A stretch of 64,000 nt of DNA, taken from positions 96,001 to 160,000 of the IMG/VR virus record IMGVR_UViG_3300023048_000002; one strand, written 5' to 3'. The first letter of the stretch is position 1; each line of letters opens with the position of its first letter. The DNA comes from a virus. Taxonomy: Duplodnaviria > Caudoviricetes. The notes beneath the pieces are model-generated. The model ran no database searches. It worked only from the letters and a program-made list of their open reading frames with translations, and was not told where the DNA came from. Position numbers and translations under genes: made by a program. Shown one piece after another: positions 4,108 to 32,647 of the stretch.

Positions 4108-5517
4108 TTAAACGAAGTCTAGGTTTACTACGTTGATCTTACCGTAGTAGTCAGCGCTGTTACCCAAGGATGTACGAGTGTCGGTTAGGACAGTCTTAGC
4201 ATAACGGGTCATCAAGCTTACTACTGGCTGCATTGTAACAGGGTTGATGATCGTACCTGTTGACATCAATGGGATGTATGGGCAGTAGAAGTAACCTGCG
4301 TCAGTTTCACCATTGCCACCCTTGTAACCGACAAGAATCTTGTCGCTACCGGCTGGTGCGGATGTACCCGGCTGAGCCTGATTCCATAGGTAGCTATAGA
4401 CCTTGATTGTACCGTTCAATGTACCTGCCAACATTGTGTTGGTTGGTGACTTGAATGAACCTTCAACTGCTGGTGCGAATACTGACTTTGCAGCGCTCTG
4501 TAGAGCAGAAACGATCATTGGAGAAACAACAATGAAGTTACCTGCGCCACGACGTGTCTTACGTGCAATTTCATTTGCTACAGCGTTAATGGTTGGACCT
4601 AGGTTTGCTAGACGATCACCAATGAATGCTGGTGCATATGTGGTACCGGAAGTTGCAGCCAAGTCAAACACGCGAACTGTACCAGCTAGTGCTAGCAAGT
4701 CGTTGATGATTTCAGCATCGATTTCCTGAACAATTTCTGCTGAAAGACCCTTGGTGATTTCAGTTTCAATGTCAAGACCGTGCTGGCTGTTCAAGTCCTG
4801 CATAGCTTCGATGGTCCATGAAGCCTGTAGCTTACGTGAAGCAGCTTCAACAGCCTGTGATACGACTTCTAGAGTCATCTTACGACCGCCAGTGCCTTCT
4901 GCGAATGATGAGTTACCACCACGTAGAGAACCACCAACTGGATTACCGTAAAGAGTTGTACCGGTTTCATAAGTTGTTACGTTTGGATCAGAAGCCCAAC
5001 CTTCACCAGTTGCAGGGGAACCAGTGATACCAGCAGGTGCGGATGTACCGTCCTGACCAGCCCAACCGAAACCGCTTGCGCCCGGAGCCTGTGCTACACC
5101 AGTGTTACCTGAGTAGAACTGACGGATTGGCTTAGCATTACCAAAAGCTTCGTCACCAGAAACGATGTCATAACCACCGAACTGTGAACGGGTTGGATCA
5201 TGCTGCATGCTTTCTTCGTACTTATAACGTAGGGTGAAAATCTGTGATACTGGACCTGACATTGGCTGAACACCAACGATTTCGGTAGCAATTGTACCCG
5301 GAATTACACGGCGGATAAGTGGTAGAAGAGTCTTACGGAAGTTCGCAATATCACCAGCGGCAATTGAACCACCTGATGCAGTTTCGCGAAGCATGTGAGT
5401 CTTCTGGTTTTCTAGAACAGCTTCGACAATGCCGACCTTGTTCTTTGGTAGACCTTCAAGCAAAGCTGACTTTGTTTGGGTCCAATTTTCGTTTAACATT
5501 TTTAGATCTTCGGCCAT
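4108..5517 (-). CDS. gp23: Major capsid protein (gp23-like)
   Basis: IRRVIP..IA.EIVGVQPMSGP; RKLQASWTIEA.QDL..QHGLD; FYCPYIPL; MTRY. Confidence 0.97.
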   Translation of the reverse strand: MAEDLKMLNENWTQTKSALLEGLPKNKVGIVEAVLENQKTHMLRETASGGSIAAGDIANFRKTLLPLIRRVIPGTIATEIVGVQPMSGPVSQIFTLRYKYEESMQHDPTRSQFGGYDIVSGDEAFGNAKPIRQFYSGNTGVAQAPGASGFGWAGQDGTSAPAGITGSPATGEGWASDPNVTTYETGTTLYGNPVGGSLRGGNSSFAEGTGGRKMTLEVVSQAVEAASRKLQASWTIEAMQDLNSQHGLDIETEITKGLSAEIVQEIDAEIINDLLALAGTVRVFDLAATSGTTYAPAFIGDRLANLGPTINAVANEIARKTRRGAGNFIVVSPMIVSALQSAAKSVFAPAVEGSFKSPTNTMLAGTLNGTIKVYSYLWNQAQPGTSAPAGSDKILVGYKGGNGETDAGYFYCPYIPLMSTGTIINPVTMQPVVSLMTRYAKTVLTDTRTSLGNSADYYGKINVVNLDFV

Positions 5518-7354: not shown

Positions 7355-7380
7355 AAAAAAGCCCGCTTTCGCGGGCTTTT
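7355..7380. terminator. Bidirectional intrinsic terminator
   Basis: AAAAAAGCCCGC-TTTC-GCGGGCTTTT between convergent genes. Confidence 0.85.
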
Positions 7381-9608: not shown

Positions 9609-9641
9609 TATTTATAGTAGCATCAAAAATTTTGATGTCAA
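9609..9641 (-). promoter_or_regulatory. Overlapping sigma70 and late promoters for Cys-Ala-Gly-Trp tRNAs
   Basis: TTGACA-16-TACTAT overlapping TATAAATA. Confidence 0.65.
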
Positions 9642-10499: not shown

Positions 10500-11342
10500 T
10501 TAAATTAACCCTTCATCTTTGTGCTTAGTATACAATGTTTCTACGTAATCTGAAACACCTTTAATGACCTTTTCAGGATCACATGCATACCATCCAGCAC
10601 AATTAAATGAATTCAATTCAACAATTCTTACTGAACCATCACCCATCTTGGCAATATCACAAGTATAGACTTCCGTTGGACTTCTATGGCTCTTGACGAC
10701 CTTCTCTGCAAGATTGAATGCCTCTATAGTGTAGAAATGGCGTTCATTGTGATCGCCCATTAGACTGTACTGAGAGCCGTCTATGATCTTATCGCCAGCC
10801 ACAATGAATCTATATTCTTCTTTAATCTGCTTGCTTGAGGATACCATGATCAAGCTATTATCAACGACACCAGACAATTGTCTAAGTGCATTCGATTGAT
10901 ATAATAAATCATCAATTCCATGAATCGGTAAACCAGTGAATAGTTTACTTCCAGAATTTGGACGAATGAATAATTTATTGGTTTGAAATAAATCTTCGTA
11001 CTTACCAAAGTTAGTTTCAAAATCGTAGAAGGTGGTAATGATGAAATCACCGTTTACCCATAGATCATTTGATAATTGTAATTTGGAATGATAGTTGTGG
11101 AACTTCAATGCTTCCTCATCGAGGAATGATCCGAAGTAAGGCTTAAGGTGTTTGCCTAGGTTGATTGTACTATAGGGTATTACACAATCATTGAAGTCAT
11201 ATGGATATTGGATGTCTTCTTTTCTTGAAAAGGGAATGTACTGCATAAGAGTACATTCATATCCCATATCTTCAATAAGACTAACAAGTTCTATTTTACG
11301 AAACTCGTTAGACATACTGTTATCTACAATCCACTTAACCAT
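10500..11342 (-). CDS. ATP-grasp protein, R2K/DUF4343 type
   Basis: FIRP..GSKLFTG, EYRF, YTCDIA, IVELNSFNCAGWY. Confidence 0.8.
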   Translation of the reverse strand: MVKWIVDNSMSNEFRKIELVSLIEDMGYECTLMQYIPFSRKEDIQYPYDFNDCVIPYSTINLGKHLKPYFGSFLDEEALKFHNYHSKLQLSNDLWVNGDFIITTFYDFETNFGKYEDLFQTNKLFIRPNSGSKLFTGLPIHGIDDLLYQSNALRQLSGVVDNSLIMVSSSKQIKEEYRFIVAGDKIIDGSQYSLMGDHNERHFYTIEAFNLAEKVVKSHRSPTEVYTCDIAKMGDGSVRIVELNSFNCAGWYACDPEKVIKGVSDYVETLYTKHKDEGLI

Positions 11343-12880: not shown

Positions 12881-13660
12881 TCAAGCCCTATTATTTATAG
12901 GGTTTGACTTGTCTTTCCACTGCTTTCTACGTTTGCAATTGTGCTTCCAAGACTTTTGCATTTTCCATCTGCCACAAAAAACATCATCCCAAGTGTTTGG
13001 GGTGTTTGCAATCTTCGCACGGAAGGTTGGTTCACTATCATCTTTGATTACAGCAGCCACCTTTCTGTGCAAGTAGTAAGTATGGATACGGCGATAGCGA
13101 CGATAGAACCTGAACTTATACTCAGTATAATCCTCTCTGTAACGAGGCTGGATGTTGGTAGATTCTACATGTGCGTAGATTTCCTTGATCTTATCTGGAT
13201 TACTAGACTTGACCACCAATGTAGCTCGGATCATTTCACGTAGTGCTTGTTCATGCTTATAAGAAGCAGTCCCGTACTTGTATACGTGAGTCTTTTTAAC
13301 CATCTCAGATACATCGACAATATCACCTAGGCTATCAGTGACGTAAAACCCCCACAGATAATCAGAAGTAGTATTGTCTCTATATTTTGGGACAGCAACA
13401 TTATCACCATGCTCATCCACCACAACATCAAAATAATATTCACGAATCGTAGTCTTGTTGATCTTGAAAAGTGAATTTGTATCTTTTGTTTTCTTGGTGG
13501 ACAATAGACTACTGAAACGGACGCCACTCTGTTTTAAAGAATACGCATTCATTTCTCTGTAGAGTTCTTCGATATCATCGAAAGTCCCAATAGCACAATC
13601 TATCATTTTATCGTAGACGGTGTATGTCTCTTTCTTAACTTCAGTTGTTACTAGTTTCAT
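12881..13660 (-). CDS. Hypothetical protein with basic C-terminal SWKHNCKRRKQWK tail
   Basis: ORF; AGGAG RBS inside a hairpin. Confidence 0.65.
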   Translation of the reverse strand: MKLVTTEVKKETYTVYDKMIDCAIGTFDDIEELYREMNAYSLKQSGVRFSSLLSTKKTKDTNSLFKINKTTIREYYFDVVVDEHGDNVAVPKYRDNTTSDYLWGFYVTDSLGDIVDVSEMVKKTHVYKYGTASYKHEQALREMIRATLVVKSSNPDKIKEIYAHVESTNIQPRYREDYTEYKFRFYRRYRRIHTYYLHRKVAAVIKDDSEPTFRAKIANTPNTWDDVFCGRWKMQKSWKHNCKRRKQWKDKSNPINNRA

Positions 13661-18462: not shown

Positions 18463-18575
18463 ATTCTTAAATACGAATGTATTTATAAACTTGTGATGAG
18501 ATTTTAATCTTATCATTTAATTTAGTATCGGTCAAGTGATCAATATCATCTTGACCATTCAAGAAGAAATCCTTA

Positions 18576-25540: not shown

Positions 25541-26203
25541 TTATTTATCTGTTTCTTCTTTAACTGCAACTAAAGGATATTTATATGGTGAGACTATACC
25601 ATCAACAAAATGTTTCGTCAAGGCTTCATCAGATAAAATCCAATATTCATTGGCTTCTCTTTGTAGTAATTCTTGTACTGGCATTCCGGTGCGCTTAGAT
25701 GCATTAACATTTAAATCAAAGATTAACATCTTTAACATAGTCAATCTGTTCTCGGCATGCTCTAACTGATCTGAAGAGATAGTTGTTCTTGCCTGATGAA
25801 ACATAATGATGGCATGTGGAAGCATGTAACGTTTAAATCCATACTGGTGAATATATGCTGCCATGCTTGCAGCAGTACCAACCACGACAGTATAGACTGG
25901 CCTCTTTGATGCCTGCATAGCATCGATAATTCTCAAGCCAGACATAACATTACCACCCGGTGAGTCAATAAACAAGATAATAGGCTTGTCTGTACTTACA
26001 TCTTGAAGATCATGAATCTTCTTGATTACCTGATAAGCAGTAAAATCATTTACTTCACCATAAAGTGTTACAGTATTCTGGTCATTCAATTCATCCTTAG
26101 ATGATGGTGACGCTGAACAGCTAACTGTAGTAGTTAGTACAAACCCTAGAACAACGAACAAGGACAAACTTTTAAACCATTGCATACTGTTTTTACTCCC
26201 CAT
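25541..26203 (-). CDS. ClpP-family protease with N-terminal signal/lipoprotein peptide
   Basis: IDSPGG, AASMA, MFHQ; hydrophobic leader ending TVSC (alternative start 26185). Confidence 0.85.
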   Translation of the reverse strand: MGSKNSMQWFKSLSLFVVLGFVLTTTVSCSASPSSKDELNDQNTVTLYGEVNDFTAYQVIKKIHDLQDVSTDKPIILFIDSPGGNVMSGLRIIDAMQASKRPVYTVVVGTAASMAAYIHQYGFKRYMLPHAIIMFHQARTTISSDQLEHAENRLTMLKMLIFDLNVNASKRTGMPVQELLQREANEYWILSDEALTKHFVDGIVSPYKYPLVAVKEETDK

Positions 26204-30041: not shown

Positions 30042-30097
30042 CTTTAAAATTCTCTTAAATGAAAAAAACTCTTAGGATATCCTAAGAGTTTTAGTGT

Positions 30098-30172
30098 TGG
30101 GGACCACGGAGAGGATCGAACTCTCTTATTCTGATTCACAGTCAGATACATTACCATTATGATACGTGGAAC
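30098..30172 (-). tRNA. tRNA-His(GTG)
   Basis: Loop CTGTGAA; G-1:C73. Confidence 0.9.
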
Positions 30173-30180
30173 ATATAACT

Positions 30181-30272
30181 TGGTGGTTCCTGTAGGATTC
30201 GGACCTACATCGTTCGGTTATCTGCCGATCATGTCTTATAAGGACACCGCACTACCATTGTGCTAAGGAACC
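30181..30272 (-). tRNA. tRNA-Ile(TAT) with variable arm carrying a GAT anticodon-like loop
   Basis: GTGTC-CTTATAA-GACAT; V-arm TCGG-CAGATAA-CCGA. Confidence 0.85.
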
Positions 30273-30277
30273 GTAAT

Positions 30278-30354
30278 TGGGAGTCGGTAGTAGGTAACGA
30301 ACCTACATCTGCAACTACTACCGCTGCATGTTCTACAATTGAACTACACCTATC
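30278..30354 (-). ncRNA. Degenerate tRNA-like RNA
   Basis: D arm, T arm and CCA present; mispaired acceptor; TGCAGC-GGTAGTA-GTTGCA arm. Confidence 0.55.
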
Positions 30355-30361
30355 ATAAAAA

Positions 30362-30438
30362 TGGCTCTTCGGGTGAGATTCGAACTCACGATCCTCTGAT
30401 TAACAGTCAGATGCATTAGGCCGCTATGCTACCGAAGA
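30362..30438 (-). tRNA. tRNA-Asn(GTT)
   Basis: Loop CTGTTAA. Confidence 0.92.
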
Positions 30439-30444
30439 ATAAAC

Positions 30445-30520
30445 TGGCGATCCGGGTGGGGCACGATCCCACGACCCCAAAATTAACAATTTTGTGCTCT
30501 ACCAACTGAGCTACCGAATC
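30445..30520 (-). tRNA. tRNA-Asn(GTT), atypical T-loop
   Basis: CAAAA-TTGTTAA-TTTTG. Confidence 0.85.
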
Positions 30521-30527
30521 ATAAAAC

Positions 30528-30619
30528 TGGTGGATGTGACAGGATTTTCGCCTGTACTACTGCGGCAGGTTGCGTCATCGGCTTCCTGACGTAGTGTCTT
30601 AAACTTAACTTACACACCC
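30528..30619 (-). ncRNA. tRNA-like RNA with branched central domain
   Basis: GGGTGTG/CACATCC-ACCA; ACAGG-CGAAAAT-CCTGT; no canonical anticodon loop. Confidence 0.6.
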
Positions 30620-30635
30620 ATAACTATTTGTGGAA

Positions 30636-30768
30636 TGGTTGGAATGGTTGGAATTGAACCAACATCACTGGCCTATAAGATCGAATCGTTGTCATTTGAC
30701 CGCCTAAGCGTCTACCTAAGTAGAAACGATCTTTTGCCTAGCGCTCTACCTATTGAGCTACTATTCCA
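30636..30768 (-). ncRNA. ~133-nt tRNA-like RNA with multi-hairpin insertion replacing anticodon loop
   Basis: D arm GCTC/GAGC; T arm GTTGG-TTCAATT-CCAAC; ACCA end; three mini hairpins. Confidence 0.7.
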
Positions 30769-30780
30769 TAAAACTAAATC

Positions 30781-30855
30781 TGGCAGAGCTAACGGGAATC
30801 GGACCCGTTTCTTATCCGTGACAGGGATAAATAATAACCAATATACCATAGCTCT
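30781..30855 (-). tRNA. tRNA-Asp(GTC)
   Basis: TATCC-CTGTCAC-GGATA. Confidence 0.88.
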
Positions 30856-30864
30856 GTAAAACTT

Positions 30865-31080
30865 TTAATCTTTCTTAATCCAAGCTAACTTAAGATGTGA
30901 AACTGGCTTATAGCCTGCATCAATTAACTCTTGTTCAGTTGGCCCATTCTTTGCAGCTTCAATATAGTCTTGCAAAGGTTTAGGGTCCATAGACTGAACA
31001 CTTAGTAATTCTTCAGCAAACTTTCGTGGAATATCTATACGAAGCTGTTTGATCAATTCTTTACGTTCTTCTTTTGTCAT
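30865..31080 (-). CDS. Small protein resembling gp23 Gol segment
   Basis: LRIDIPRKFAEELLSVQSMDP vs IRRVIPGTIATEIVGVQPMSGP. Confidence 0.65.
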   Translation of the reverse strand: MTKEERKELIKQLRIDIPRKFAEELLSVQSMDPKPLQDYIEAAKNGPTEQELIDAGYKPVSHLKLAWIKKD

Positions 31081-31094
31081 ATTTTTCTCTAAAT

Positions 31095-31179
31095 TGGTGG
31101 GACGCGCAGGAGTCGAACCTGCCTAGAACTTTCGTTCGCTGATTAAGAGTCAGATGCACAACCGCTATGCCAGCGTCCC
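31095..31179 (-). tRNA. tRNA-Lys(CTT) with long variable arm
   Basis: Loop CTCTTAA; V-arm GAAC-GAAA-GTTC. Confidence 0.85.
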
Positions 31180-31184
31180 AAATT

Positions 31185-31259
31185 TGGCGGAACATACGGG
31201 GATCGAACCCGTCTCAGCGCATAGACAGTGCGCCAGCCTCACCAGATGCTTCATGCTCC
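31185..31259 (-). tRNA. tRNA-Asp(GTC)
   Basis: GCGCA-CTGTCTA-TGCGC. Confidence 0.88.
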
Positions 31260-31260
31260 A

Positions 31261-31452
31261 TTAAAAATTTTTCTTCTTAAGTTGATCTAACTTTCGCTGA
31301 CCAACATTACTTAATGAATTAAGAATTTCTTTATCAATTTCATGTAAAACAGCATCTACGATATGTCGAGTGCCTTTCTTTAATTGTTCTTCGGTGAACA
31401 TTGGATACTTTTTTGCCAATTGATCTATTTCTTCAAATGTTATTTCAAACAT
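31261..31452 (-). CDS. Small protein resembling a gp23 helix
   Basis: AVLHEIDKEILNSL vs EIVQEIDAEIINDL. Confidence 0.65.
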   Translation of the reverse strand: MFEITFEEIDQLAKKYPMFTEEQLKKGTRHIVDAVLHEIDKEILNSLSNVGQRKLDQLKKKNF

Positions 31453-31468
31453 TTTTTATCCTTTAATG

Positions 31469-31545
31469 TGGTGGTTCCTATAGGTTTCGCACCTATGACC
31501 TCACGGTTATCAGCCATGCGCTCTAACTATCTGAGCTAAGGAACC
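31469..31545 (-). tRNA. tRNA-Ile(GAT)
   Basis: CATGG-CTGATAA-CCGTG. Confidence 0.9.
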
Positions 31546-31554
31546 ATTTAAAAC

Positions 31555-31640
31555 TGGTGTAAGCGGTTGGATTCGAACCAACGTTTCCGCTAGGAGGCAG
31601 ATTTACAGTCTGCTGGCATAAACCACTCGCCCACGCTTAC
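31555..31640 (-). tRNA. tRNA-Tyr(GTA)
   Basis: GCAGA-CTGTAAA-TCTGC; V-arm. Confidence 0.92.
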
Positions 31641-31648
31641 ATAATTAT

Positions 31649-31873
31649 TTAATCTAAATCACAGTCGCTAATTTTATTATCTTTCATTAGATTCTTCAAA
31701 GCTTCAATCATCGGTTTATCGATATCTGCCTGAGTTACACCAATCTTGGCGAACTCTATCATGATTTCTTCTTTTAAGATTCTAGCTAATTCATCTTCTA
31801 CATCAATTCCTAATTCAGTTAAACGTTGAATATCTTCATCTGAAATTTTCTTATCTGACATAGTACTTTCCAT
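31649..31873 (-). CDS. Small protein resembling a gp23 helix
   Basis: LGIDVEDELARILKEEIMIE vs HGLDIETEITKGLSAEIVQE; own TTGACA-17-TATCAT promoter. Confidence 0.65.
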   Translation of the reverse strand: MESTMSDKKISDEDIQRLTELGIDVEDELARILKEEIMIEFAKIGVTQADIDKPMIEALKNLMKDNKISDCDLD

Positions 31874-31923
31874 TTTTTATCATGATATCGAGCTATAAGC
31901 TGGTTGTCAATGATAATTTGAAT

Positions 31924-31999
31924 TGGTGAAGTCGATTGGAATCGAACCAACGACGCGAACCTTTTCAGGGTTCCGCTCTACCAACTGAGCTACGACTTC
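31924..31999 (-). tRNA. tRNA-Phe(GAA)
   Basis: GAACC-CTGAAAA-GGTTC. Confidence 0.92.
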
Positions 32000-32148
32000 A
32001 TATTCTTCCAGTGTATCTTACAATCATTACGATTAACAAGTACTGGGATTTTCATATCTGGATTATCTTTCAACTCTTGAACAAGACGTTCGCGCTTTTT
32101 TCGCTGCAATTTATCCCATTCTTCTTTCGACAAGAATTTAATATCCAT
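31990..32148 (-). CDS. 52-aa hypothetical protein ending inside tRNA-Phe
   Basis: MDIKFLSKEEWDK...; GAGG RBS; TTGACA-16-TAAGAT promoter. Confidence 0.5.
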   Translation of the reverse strand: MDIKFLSKEEWDKLQRKKRERLVQELKDNPDMKIPVLVNRNDCKIHWKNMKS

Positions 32149-32197
32149 TTCTACCTCTACATCTTACAATGGTTATTTTCATTGTCAAGTTTTAATT

Positions 32198-32288
32198 TGG
32201 TGGGTGAGGACGGATTCGAACCGCCAACGCTTTTTAAAGTCCTGTTTTACAGACAGGTGTGACACTTACCAATAGTCACCACTCCCCC
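32198..32288 (-). tRNA. tRNA-Tyr(GTA) with enlarged D arm
   Basis: CCTGT-CTGTAAA-ACAGG; D stem GTGAC/GTCAC. Confidence 0.85.
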
Positions 32289-32305
32289 ATTACGGTATTT
32301 AAATT

Positions 32306-32380
32306 TGGTGGGTCTGGTGAGAATTGAACTCACTACGGTCGGATTAAAAGTCCGGTGCCTATCCATTTAGCTTCAAACCC
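32306..32380 (-). tRNA. tRNA-Lys(TTT)
   Basis: Loop CTTTTAA. Confidence 0.88.
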
Positions 32381-32420
32381 AAATTTCGTTTTCAATTGTT
32401 AAACAACATTTTGTAGCAAT

Positions 32421-32445
32421 AAAAAAGCCCGCTTTTCGCGGGCTT
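32421..32445 (-). terminator. Attenuator terminator upstream of tRNA array
   Basis: AAGCCCGC-GAAAA-GCGGGCTT-TTTT. Confidence 0.88.
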
Positions 32446-32471
32446 CTTTTCTGTTCCTTGTGGAGGGAGAT

Positions 32472-32570
32472 TTACATCTCTTGCGTTCCACTTCCTTCAG
32501 ATAAAGAAGCACCATGACTATTTTTATAATCATTATTATGATCGAAGTTTTTAATAAACTTGTTATTCAC
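32472..32570 (-). CDS. 32-aa attenuator leader peptide MNNKFIKNFDHNNDYKNSHGASLSEGSGTQEM
   Basis: GTG start with GGA upstream; stop at apex of antiterminator hairpin. Confidence 0.75.
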   Translation of the reverse strand: MNNKFIKNFDHNNDYKNSHGASLSEGSGTQEM

Positions 32571-32598
32571 TGGGTGCGTCCGTTTGGTTAGTGGAGGA

Positions 32599-32647
32599 AT
32601 CTTAACATGATATTCTATCTTGTCAAGTCCTGTTAAATCTATTTATA
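32599..32647 (-). promoter_or_regulatory. Sigma70 (extended -10) and late promoters for leader/tRNA array
   Basis: TTGACA-16-TAAGAT with TG; TATAAATA at 32647-32640. Confidence 0.75.

Follow-up and report, generated by a model that had tools for sequence, protein, structure and literature searches.

Transcription attenuation by a translated leader is textbook material for amino-acid biosynthesis. The trpL, hisL, leuL, pheL, thr and ilvGMEDA leaders share a short open reading frame (ORF) of regulatory codons, overlapping 1:2, 2:3 and 3:4 helices, and a terminator placed before the genes. An element of about 230 nt with a similar build lies at positions 32421 to 32647, on the minus strand, of the 64,000-nt stretch of phage DNA analyzed here (the window), which comprises bases 96001-160000 of a 171-kb IMG/VR record and in which the element heads an array of 12 tRNA genes. 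It is probably a ribosome-mediated attenuator that acts on transcription through a leader peptide and gates the phage tRNA operon, with codons that mirror the array; the case for this reading comes from sequence comparison and modelled folding.

In build and logic, the closest described systems are the multivalent thr and ilvGMEDA leaders, in which, as would be true of the phage leader, several amino acids are sensed at once. The phage element nonetheless differs from the amino-acid operon leaders in several respects. It is viral, it would regulate tRNA genes instead of biosynthetic enzymes, and its leader would sense seven families. Its geometry is also distinct, in that region 1 is placed in the 5' untranslated region (UTR), outside the ORF, and regions 2 and 3 have the stop codon between them. 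The likeness is one of build and not of homology: the Rfam leader matches on the stretch, which count in favour of the attenuator, all scored below their cut-offs (Trp_leader, 25.8 bits against 41; Thr, 23.9 against 55; Phe, 19.9 against 55; Leu, 18.5 against 50; His, 16.4 against 49), and only tRNAs reached the Rfam gathering score on the stretch.

Two other systems bear comparison. The E. coli pheST attenuator, with its pheM leader, is cellular, controls a synthetase and senses one amino acid. It is the closest in purpose, since there too a component of translation is attenuated by sensing the very function it supplies, giving negative feedback, but the product of the phage element is the tRNA itself. 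The T-box, like the phage element, is a leader that chooses between terminator and antiterminator, reports the state of the tRNA pool and controls translation-related genes. It differs in binding one uncharged tRNA directly through a specifier codon, with no need of a ribosome, and one specifier could not read the seven families of the phage leader. The T-box model found no match on the stretch, either at the gathering threshold or out to E = 10.

The tRNA arrays of XacN1, T5 and the mycobacteriophages are viewed as codon-supply or anti-defence modules, and the present locus resembles them in the large tRNA complement of an XacN1-related jumbo phage. The tRNAs of XacN1 follow the codons that the phage uses more often than its host does (PMC5852040), and three other reports describe phage tRNAs that rescue infection from tRNA-cleaving defences (PMC10264068, PMC11555353, PMC11464382). 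Published phage arrays have been treated as plainly expressed; neither a codon-matched leader nor conditional termination was found described for them, and the XacN1 paper makes no mention of promoters, terminators or leaders (PMC5852040). Full-text literature likewise yielded no description of attenuation or leader peptides before tRNA genes, viral or cellular. What would be new here is leader-peptide attenuation aimed at tRNA genes, or operating in a virus; no published case of either was found.

A leader spelled in the amino acids of its array

The putative leader ORF (32472..32570, minus strand) begins with GTG and runs for 32 sense codons to a TAA. Codons 2-17 (32520..32567) specify Asn, Lys, Phe, Ile, Asp, His and Tyr exclusively, and all seven are present. 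The array that follows (30098-32380, minus strand) encodes tRNAs for Lys (x2), Tyr (x2), Phe, Ile (x2), Asp (x2), Asn (x2) and His, with small ORFs among them, and its first tRNA begins 40 bases past the terminator of the element. The initial annotation of this DNA, made from sequence alone, had proposed exactly this arrangement of early and late promoters, 32-codon leader, terminator and array; all of these parts were located where it had placed them, and both the restriction of codons 2-17 to seven families and the identity of the 12 tRNAs were verified.

The stretch carrying the codon run is very AT-rich, at 15% GC. Among the six frames of the 171-kb record, this 16-codon run is the longest made up of the seven amino acids; the runner-up, at 14 codons, lies antisense to it in the same DNA. 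In a related 350-kb genome (G001), too, the homologous run ranks first among all six frames. Open 48-nt frames of equal AT content elsewhere in the genome typically reach 8-12 of 16 codons and this one alone scores 16 of 16, a value returned by 2 of 100,000 shuffles of the 48 nt (2e-5). The codon match is beyond chance.

These figures bear on one alternative, that an AT-rich spacer is open in one frame by coincidence and that the terminator merely ends an upstream late operon. The codons for Asn, Lys, Phe, Ile and Tyr are indeed AT-rich, the antisense strand does yield its own 14-codon run, and there is no terminator in the interval from an upstream gene for a 146-aa protein to the leader. Coincidence is nevertheless barely credible: it is rejected by both the empirical and the shuffle nulls, the element is conserved where the upstream gene is not, the other terminators of the genome mostly sit directly past stop codons and lack an upstream complement, and leader and array co-vary among cassettes, as described below.

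Conservation in close relatives

The genes of the window include a T4-type portal along with further myovirus genes. The record that contains it (G000) is 39% GC and estimated to be about half complete; it holds 32 tRNA genes, and the 12-gene array heads a minus-strand tRNA region of 24 kb. The source is a T4-like jumbo phage of roughly 350 kb, distant kin of Xanthomonas phage XacN1. By portal sequence, the named phages that come nearest are Xoo-sp13 and XacN1, two Xanthomonas jumbo phages with about 51% identity, and closer kin in IMG/VR are uncultured phages of 340-350 kb.

From the late promoter to past the terminator, the element is 68-71% identical in four related IMG/VR records (G001-G004), three of which are distinct; G004 is identical to G003, and one metagenome contig duplicates G003 as well. 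The homologue set thus consists of four sequences: the window, G001, G002 and G003. When IMG/VR and JGI metagenomes were scanned for exact patterns of the leader core and of the 2:3 switch, the four known relatives and the one duplicate came back, and no more. A nucleotide search of GenBank phages with the element gave matches to tRNA-Lys only.

The element tracks the array rather than the upstream gene. In every relative it stands immediately before a same-family tRNA array, and the upstream protein gene is not conserved in the relatives that carry the element; the 146-aa protein, used as a query, turned up no close relatives. The G001 array has ten tRNAs from exactly the seven families, and that of G003 has Tyr, His, Asp, Phe, Lys, Asn and Ile, one apiece. 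In G001 the first tRNA starts 14 nt past the U-tract, leaving no room for a promoter between the two, so that this tRNA can be made only by read-through of the terminator.

The ORF itself is kept in frame in G001, G002 and G003, where the initial annotation had held that a frame not conserved in relatives would speak against its reading. All three begin with ATG, and the differences include a 3-nt in-frame indel. Codons of the seven families fill 15/16, 16/16 and 16/17 positions of the opening run in the relatives, and the variable codons 3-8 stay within the set in 19 of 21 cases. Differences at codon positions 1, 2 and 3 number 21, 27 and 38, and the leader frame has 15 synonymous codon differences where the other open frame has 1. 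The three relatives share an identical middle portion of the peptide, and the N-terminal residues vary freely inside the codon set. Conservation, which the initial annotation had suggested looking for, covers the ORF, both antiterminator arms and the terminator.

This pattern could also be asked of an ordinary gene for a trans-acting peptide of 30-32 residues, with its own promoter and terminator, that merely adjoins the array. The invariant central peptide and the mild coding signature would suit such a gene. They are, however, outweighed by the free variation of the N-terminal residues within the codon set, by the presence upstream of a copy of the terminator's own 3' arm, which a plain terminator does not need, and by the leaders of a more distant phage (see below), which are unrelated in sequence and still track their arrays. 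A PHROGs search with the leader peptide and with the other open frame gave no family matches, and a separate small gene of this kind is very improbable. A toxin-like gene for a hydrophobic peptide in the +1 frame (32533-32399) was also considered. It was rejected, as the window does not keep the ATG and 54 of the 55 codon differences in this frame are non-synonymous.

Two features of the relatives' tRNAs may be recorded here. The first tRNA after the leader in G002 (L046:1328-1416) is of Tyr type; it was missed by ARAGORN and scores just 30.7 bits with Rfam. Transfer RNAs with a CUA anticodon, of the amber suppressor type and called Pyl by ARAGORN, occur on the G001 contig (26819-26975), on the G002 contig (152451-152540) and in XacN1 too.

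Predicted alternative folds of the leader RNA

The RNA from promoter to terminator is predicted to fold far more stably than shuffled sequences (z = -5.1) and to adopt the mutually exclusive helices of an attenuator. Region 1 (32573..32581) lies in the 5' UTR and would close over the start codon and the regulatory codons by pairing with region 2 (32498..32513), the 5' arm of the antiterminator. Region 3 (32440..32453), the antiterminator 3' arm, overlaps the 5' arm of an intrinsic terminator (3:4; 32421..32449) with a 12-bp stem, a GAAAA loop and six U residues. The core of region 2, GCUUCUUU (32510-32503), is invariant in the four homologues. All of these segments, like the ORF, are on the minus strand.

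The proposed 2:3 helix joins 32510-32498 to 32453-32442 through 12 bp with one bulge, and encloses GUGGA/UCCAC and GAGAU-GUAA-AUCUC helices. The latter belong to a central nested hairpin (32460..32491) whose apex loop contains the leader stop codon (32474-32472). This structure had been proposed from inspection, and it is the one to which the nascent RNA is predicted to fold. In all four homologues, RNA that lacks the 3' arm of the terminator gives this 2:3 helix in the predictions, with 4-6 additional pairs running into the terminator arm's GC core. The sequence between regions 2 and 3 differs among the relatives, yet each retains a nested hairpin with its stop codon.

With RNA that stops at region 2, all four copies are predicted to pair region 2 with a 5'-UTR segment just ahead of the start codon, forming the 1:2 helix with differing sequences and registers. 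Its complementarity is modestly better than that of shuffled UTRs (p = 0.04, 0.02, 0.13 and 0.05), and at full length three of the four copies have 1:2 plus 3:4 as their ground state. The 1:2, 2:3 and 3:4 alternatives are predicted in every copy. RNAalifold and pair counts give covariation in support of two helices. One is the terminator, with a compensatory pair in G003; the other is a conserved 7-bp hairpin within the ORF (32514..32533, possibly a pause hairpin), with two compensatory pairs and one wobble change among the four sequences.

The effect of a ribosome was modelled as an equilibrium ensemble at the time of decision, leaving out the U-tract (which would be in hybrid) and masking the RNA up to the front edge of the stalled ribosome. 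With a stall at codons 8-14, the probability of a complete terminator stem drops from 0.97 to 0.27 in the window, from 0.81 to 0.27 in G002, and from 0.40 to 0.15-0.22 in G003. In the model, then, a stalled ribosome shifts the predicted balance according to trp-attenuator logic.

The terminator is not in itself peculiar to this locus. The genome has 13 copies of GCCCGC-type terminators (strand-wise matches at seven sites), most of the others sitting directly past stop codons; an upstream 8-nt complement accompanies just 1 of the 13, that of the attenuator. A near-identical bidirectional GCCCGC-GAAA-GCGGGC with A/T-run flanks occurs at six more sites in the record (15508, 22381, 50450, 89532, 103361 and 147572), two of which fall in the window at 7361 and 51572. 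The GCCCGC terminator looks like a reused module.

Such extensive structure invites a reading that is independent of translation. A structured leader RNA might carry a leaky terminator or be released as a small RNA, with read-through that is constitutive or set by a protein or RNA factor, and the ORF would then be a by-product of AU-rich loops and hairpins. The stability of the fold (z = -5.1) and the compensatory pairs of the in-ORF hairpin accord with this, as do the weak Shine-Dalgarno sequence and GTG start of the leader and the coincidence of the ORF's invariant stretches with paired segments. It leaves unexplained, on the other hand, why all 16 in-frame codons belong to the seven families when equally AT-rich open frames reach 8-12, why the indel is in frame and the relatives start with ATG, and why the leaders of the distant phage, three of them with Shine-Dalgarno-like motifs, are spelled in the amino acids of their own arrays. 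On balance a purely structural role is unlikely.

Sister cassettes in a distant relative

The decisive comparison is with a more distant phage that carries other elements of the same kind. A portal-profile search for further large relatives found G009, a record of 179 kb with 38 tRNAs and a portal 44% identical to that of the window. It carries four cassettes of one build: an overlapping early/late promoter, an ATG, an ORF of 31-33 codons, an intrinsic terminator, an AT-rich box, and tRNAs. The leaders share this build and position and are unrelated in sequence.

The amino acids of each leader, taken over its first 20 codons, match the array that it heads, which is the co-variation of codons with array content that the initial annotation had suggested looking for. 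At L339:10981-11129, a leader of Phe, Thr, Ala, Pro, Glu, Trp, His and Met codons precedes tRNAs for Pro, Pro, Ala, Glu, Phe, Thr, His, Thr, Trp, Met, Thr and Ala. At L340:4382-4533, Arg, Gln, Ile, Val and Asp codons precede tRNAs for Gln, Gln, Asp, Arg, Val, Ile, Asp, Arg, Arg and Arg, and at L340:10220-10374 a run of Asn, Val and Lys codons precedes tRNAs for Val, Asn and Lys (x3). The leader at L338:7213-7358 has Leu, Gly, Ser, Cys, Tyr and Lys codons ahead of tRNAs for Tyr, Cys, Leu, Gly, Ser, Lys, Leu, Ser and Leu. In a leader-by-array matrix, the diagonal values are 0.85 for the window and 0.95, 0.80, 0.45 and 0.75 for the G009 cassettes, with off-diagonal values mostly 0-0.30.

The RNA switch changes along with the codons. 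The terminator stem differs from cassette to cassette, and a matching copy of the stem's 3' arm is found in the 3' half of the same cassette's ORF (shuffle p for the region-2 match: 0.011 in the window; 0.02, 0.0025, 0.001 and 0.078 in G009). Judged by sequence comparison, the 2:3 helix covaries with the terminator across the five cassettes. Shine-Dalgarno-like motifs (GGAG, AAGGAG and AAAGGA) are present in all but one of the four G009 cassettes. The modelled probability of the terminator is 0.79-0.92 without a ribosome in three of the four, and once the ribosome has reached the stop codon it is 0.80-0.98 in all four; stalling within the regulatory codons makes the modelled terminator unlikely, as in the Arg/Gln cassette, where the value goes from 0.81 to 0.01-0.08.

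The distribution of such cassettes is uneven. No cassette was found under strict criteria in G007 and G008 (portal 49%), and about 35 other tRNA-array heads, spread over G000, G001 and G002, showed no analogous leader, so that one cassette remains in the window's clade. A different arrangement is seen in XacN1 (L219:30429-30470) and Xoo-sp13 (L220:1515-1559), which share a conserved ORF of 13-14 codons, with four Tyr and three to five Lys codons, just past a late-promoter-like CTAAATA and just before tRNA-Lys, tRNA-Lys and tRNA-Tyr. This ORF was rejected as an attenuator, the conserved hairpin that follows it being without a U-tract terminator; it may be a degenerate or different kind of leader. 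A pattern scan for ORFs of this type found no further copies. As a separate observation, the first tRNA after the leader at L338 in G009 (L338:7396-7511) is of Tyr type and was missed by ARAGORN. It has an insertion of about 33 nt in the anticodon loop, right after G34, that looks like an intron.

The sister cassettes also speak to function. A dedicated counter-defence can be envisaged, in which the leader detects cleavage of host Asn, Asp, His and Tyr as well as Lys tRNAs by anticodon nucleases and induces nuclease-resistant replacements. The unit covers all four families with GUN anticodons, along with Lys; loss of such tRNAs would be registered by an attenuator, and rescue of infection from tRNA-cleaving defences is documented for phage tRNAs in the three reports noted earlier (PMC10264068, PMC11555353, PMC11464382). 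The set also includes Phe and Ile, however, and the G009 cassettes gate nearly all other families, so the design is not confined to the tRNAs that nucleases attack. The grouping is accounted for just as well by codon demand that differs between a 39% GC phage and its host, and the tRNAs of XacN1 likewise follow codons favoured by the phage over its host (PMC5852040). Specialization for nuclease defence is accordingly improbable. A general sensor of decoding supply fits better and is more economical, since the G009 cassettes gate nearly all families and the seven families of the window are largely amino acids with AT-rich codons, used heavily by a 39% GC phage. The sister cassettes add Pro, Ala, Glu, Thr, Trp, Met, Gln, Arg, Val, Cys, Leu, Gly and Ser to the coverage.

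Promoters and surrounding arrays

At the upstream end of the element is an exact match to a T4-type late promoter, TATAAATA (32640..32647, minus strand), which is kept in three of the four homologues and reads CTAAATA in the fourth. It is followed by a sigma-70-like early promoter with an extended -10 (TG), TTGACA-16-TAAGAT (32599..32626, minus strand), whose -35 and TGTTAAG blocks are invariant in all four. All seven copies of TATAAATA in the window are on the gene strand. Four of them lie 18-46 nt before the first tRNA of other arrays (9609-9616, 12892-12899, 18480-18487 and 25578-25585, minus strand), which suggests that late promoters drive these other arrays of the window directly, with no leader in between.

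Between the terminator and the first tRNA is a conserved AT-rich box (32396..32411, minus strand). Its consensus, AAATG.T..TTTAA.AA.TTGAAA, is found in the window, G002, G003 and the G009 cassettes (L338:7364-7390, L339 at about 11160-11185, and L340 at about 4545-4570) and is absent from G001. Within the array are two promoter-like sites (32161-32188 and 31882-31910, minus strand), one of which has the hexamers of the leader's promoter; each precedes an ORF of 52-74 aa wedged among the tRNAs. A strong terminator just past tRNA-His (30065..30092, minus strand) closes the unit.

Proposed mechanism

Transcription from the early and late promoters would start a leader RNA of roughly 170-210 nt, and a ribosome would translate the 32-codon ORF, the first 16 sense codons after the start being drawn from the seven families of the array. 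When decoding is fast, the ribosome would cross region 2 to the stop codon lying between regions 2 and 3, leaving region 3 free to pair with region 4; the terminator would form and transcription would end before the first tRNA. Where any of the seven families is decoded slowly, the ribosome would stall upstream, with region 1 masked or separated from region 2. Region 2 would then pair with region 3, capturing most of the terminator 5' arm, and RNA polymerase would enter the array. With no ribosome on the leader, the 1:2 plus 3:4 form would lead to termination. The net result would be negative feedback, by which the phage tops up those tRNAs that limit decoding.

The initial annotation had placed the element among attenuators of the trp/his type. 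The structural part of that assignment stands, in the conserved ORF, arms and terminator, the alternative folds, and the co-variation in G009. For leader translation, ribosome stalling and regulated read-through, we infer their occurrence from sequence features, conservation, co-variation and predicted folds.

A number of observations weigh against the attenuator reading. Some concern translation of the leader. The window ORF starts with GTG and, as the initial annotation had cautioned, has a weak ribosome-binding site; its anti-Shine-Dalgarno duplex is predicted at -3.2 kcal/mol, where the gene median is -4.3 and the random value -1.9; the three relatives have duplexes of -1.0 to -2.9 kcal/mol. 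RNA pairing alone explains part of the conservation within the ORF: the compensatory pairs of the in-ORF hairpin account for the Ile/Asn and Gln/His/Arg changes, and GAUCAU in the ORF pairs with the start codon. The leader of G002 has four Asn codons, yet tRNA-Asn was not detected in its array, which holds Tyr, His, Asp, Phe, Lys, Ile (x2) and Arg.

Other difficulties concern the switch. The antiterminator core, GCUUCUUU with AAAGAAGC (8 bp), is invariant in all four copies, and for that reason the clade provides no covariation for the 2:3 helix. At equilibrium the antiterminated form is 0-7 kcal/mol less stable than the terminator, and the modelled switch of G001, which is mostly antiterminated already, barely moves. 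The sample is also small, with 4 distinct sequences of the exact element in the collections searched.

The remaining objections concern how much of the array the switch would command. The caveat about promoter-like sites near 32188 and 31910 holds: they could feed 10 of the 12 tRNAs independently of the attenuator, in which case strict dependence on the switch would be left for tRNA-Lys(UUU) and the first tRNA-Tyr alone. Finally, the box past the terminator might serve in processing or act as a phage-specific bypass promoter.

Implications for phage tRNA arrays

If the attenuator reading is true, these arrays are expressed on demand only. On-demand expression bears on the question of why phages carry tRNAs at all, whether for codon supply, for replacement of degraded tRNAs, or for escape from tRNA-cleaving defences. 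The leader would amount to a list, readable from sequence alone, of the tRNAs that the phage handles as one functional unit, and the element as a whole would be a compact, programmable sensor of decoding speed at chosen codons.

A tentative extension, which the evidence makes conceivable rather than likely, is that the whole tRNA complement of this lineage is organized as self-tuning modules, each array under its own codon-matched attenuator, acting together as an inducible counter-defence and a governor of codon supply. Were that so, the virus would sense in real time how well the infected cell can decode and would make only those tRNAs that are scarce, and scarcity brought about by host tRNA-cleaving defences would count as a trigger too.

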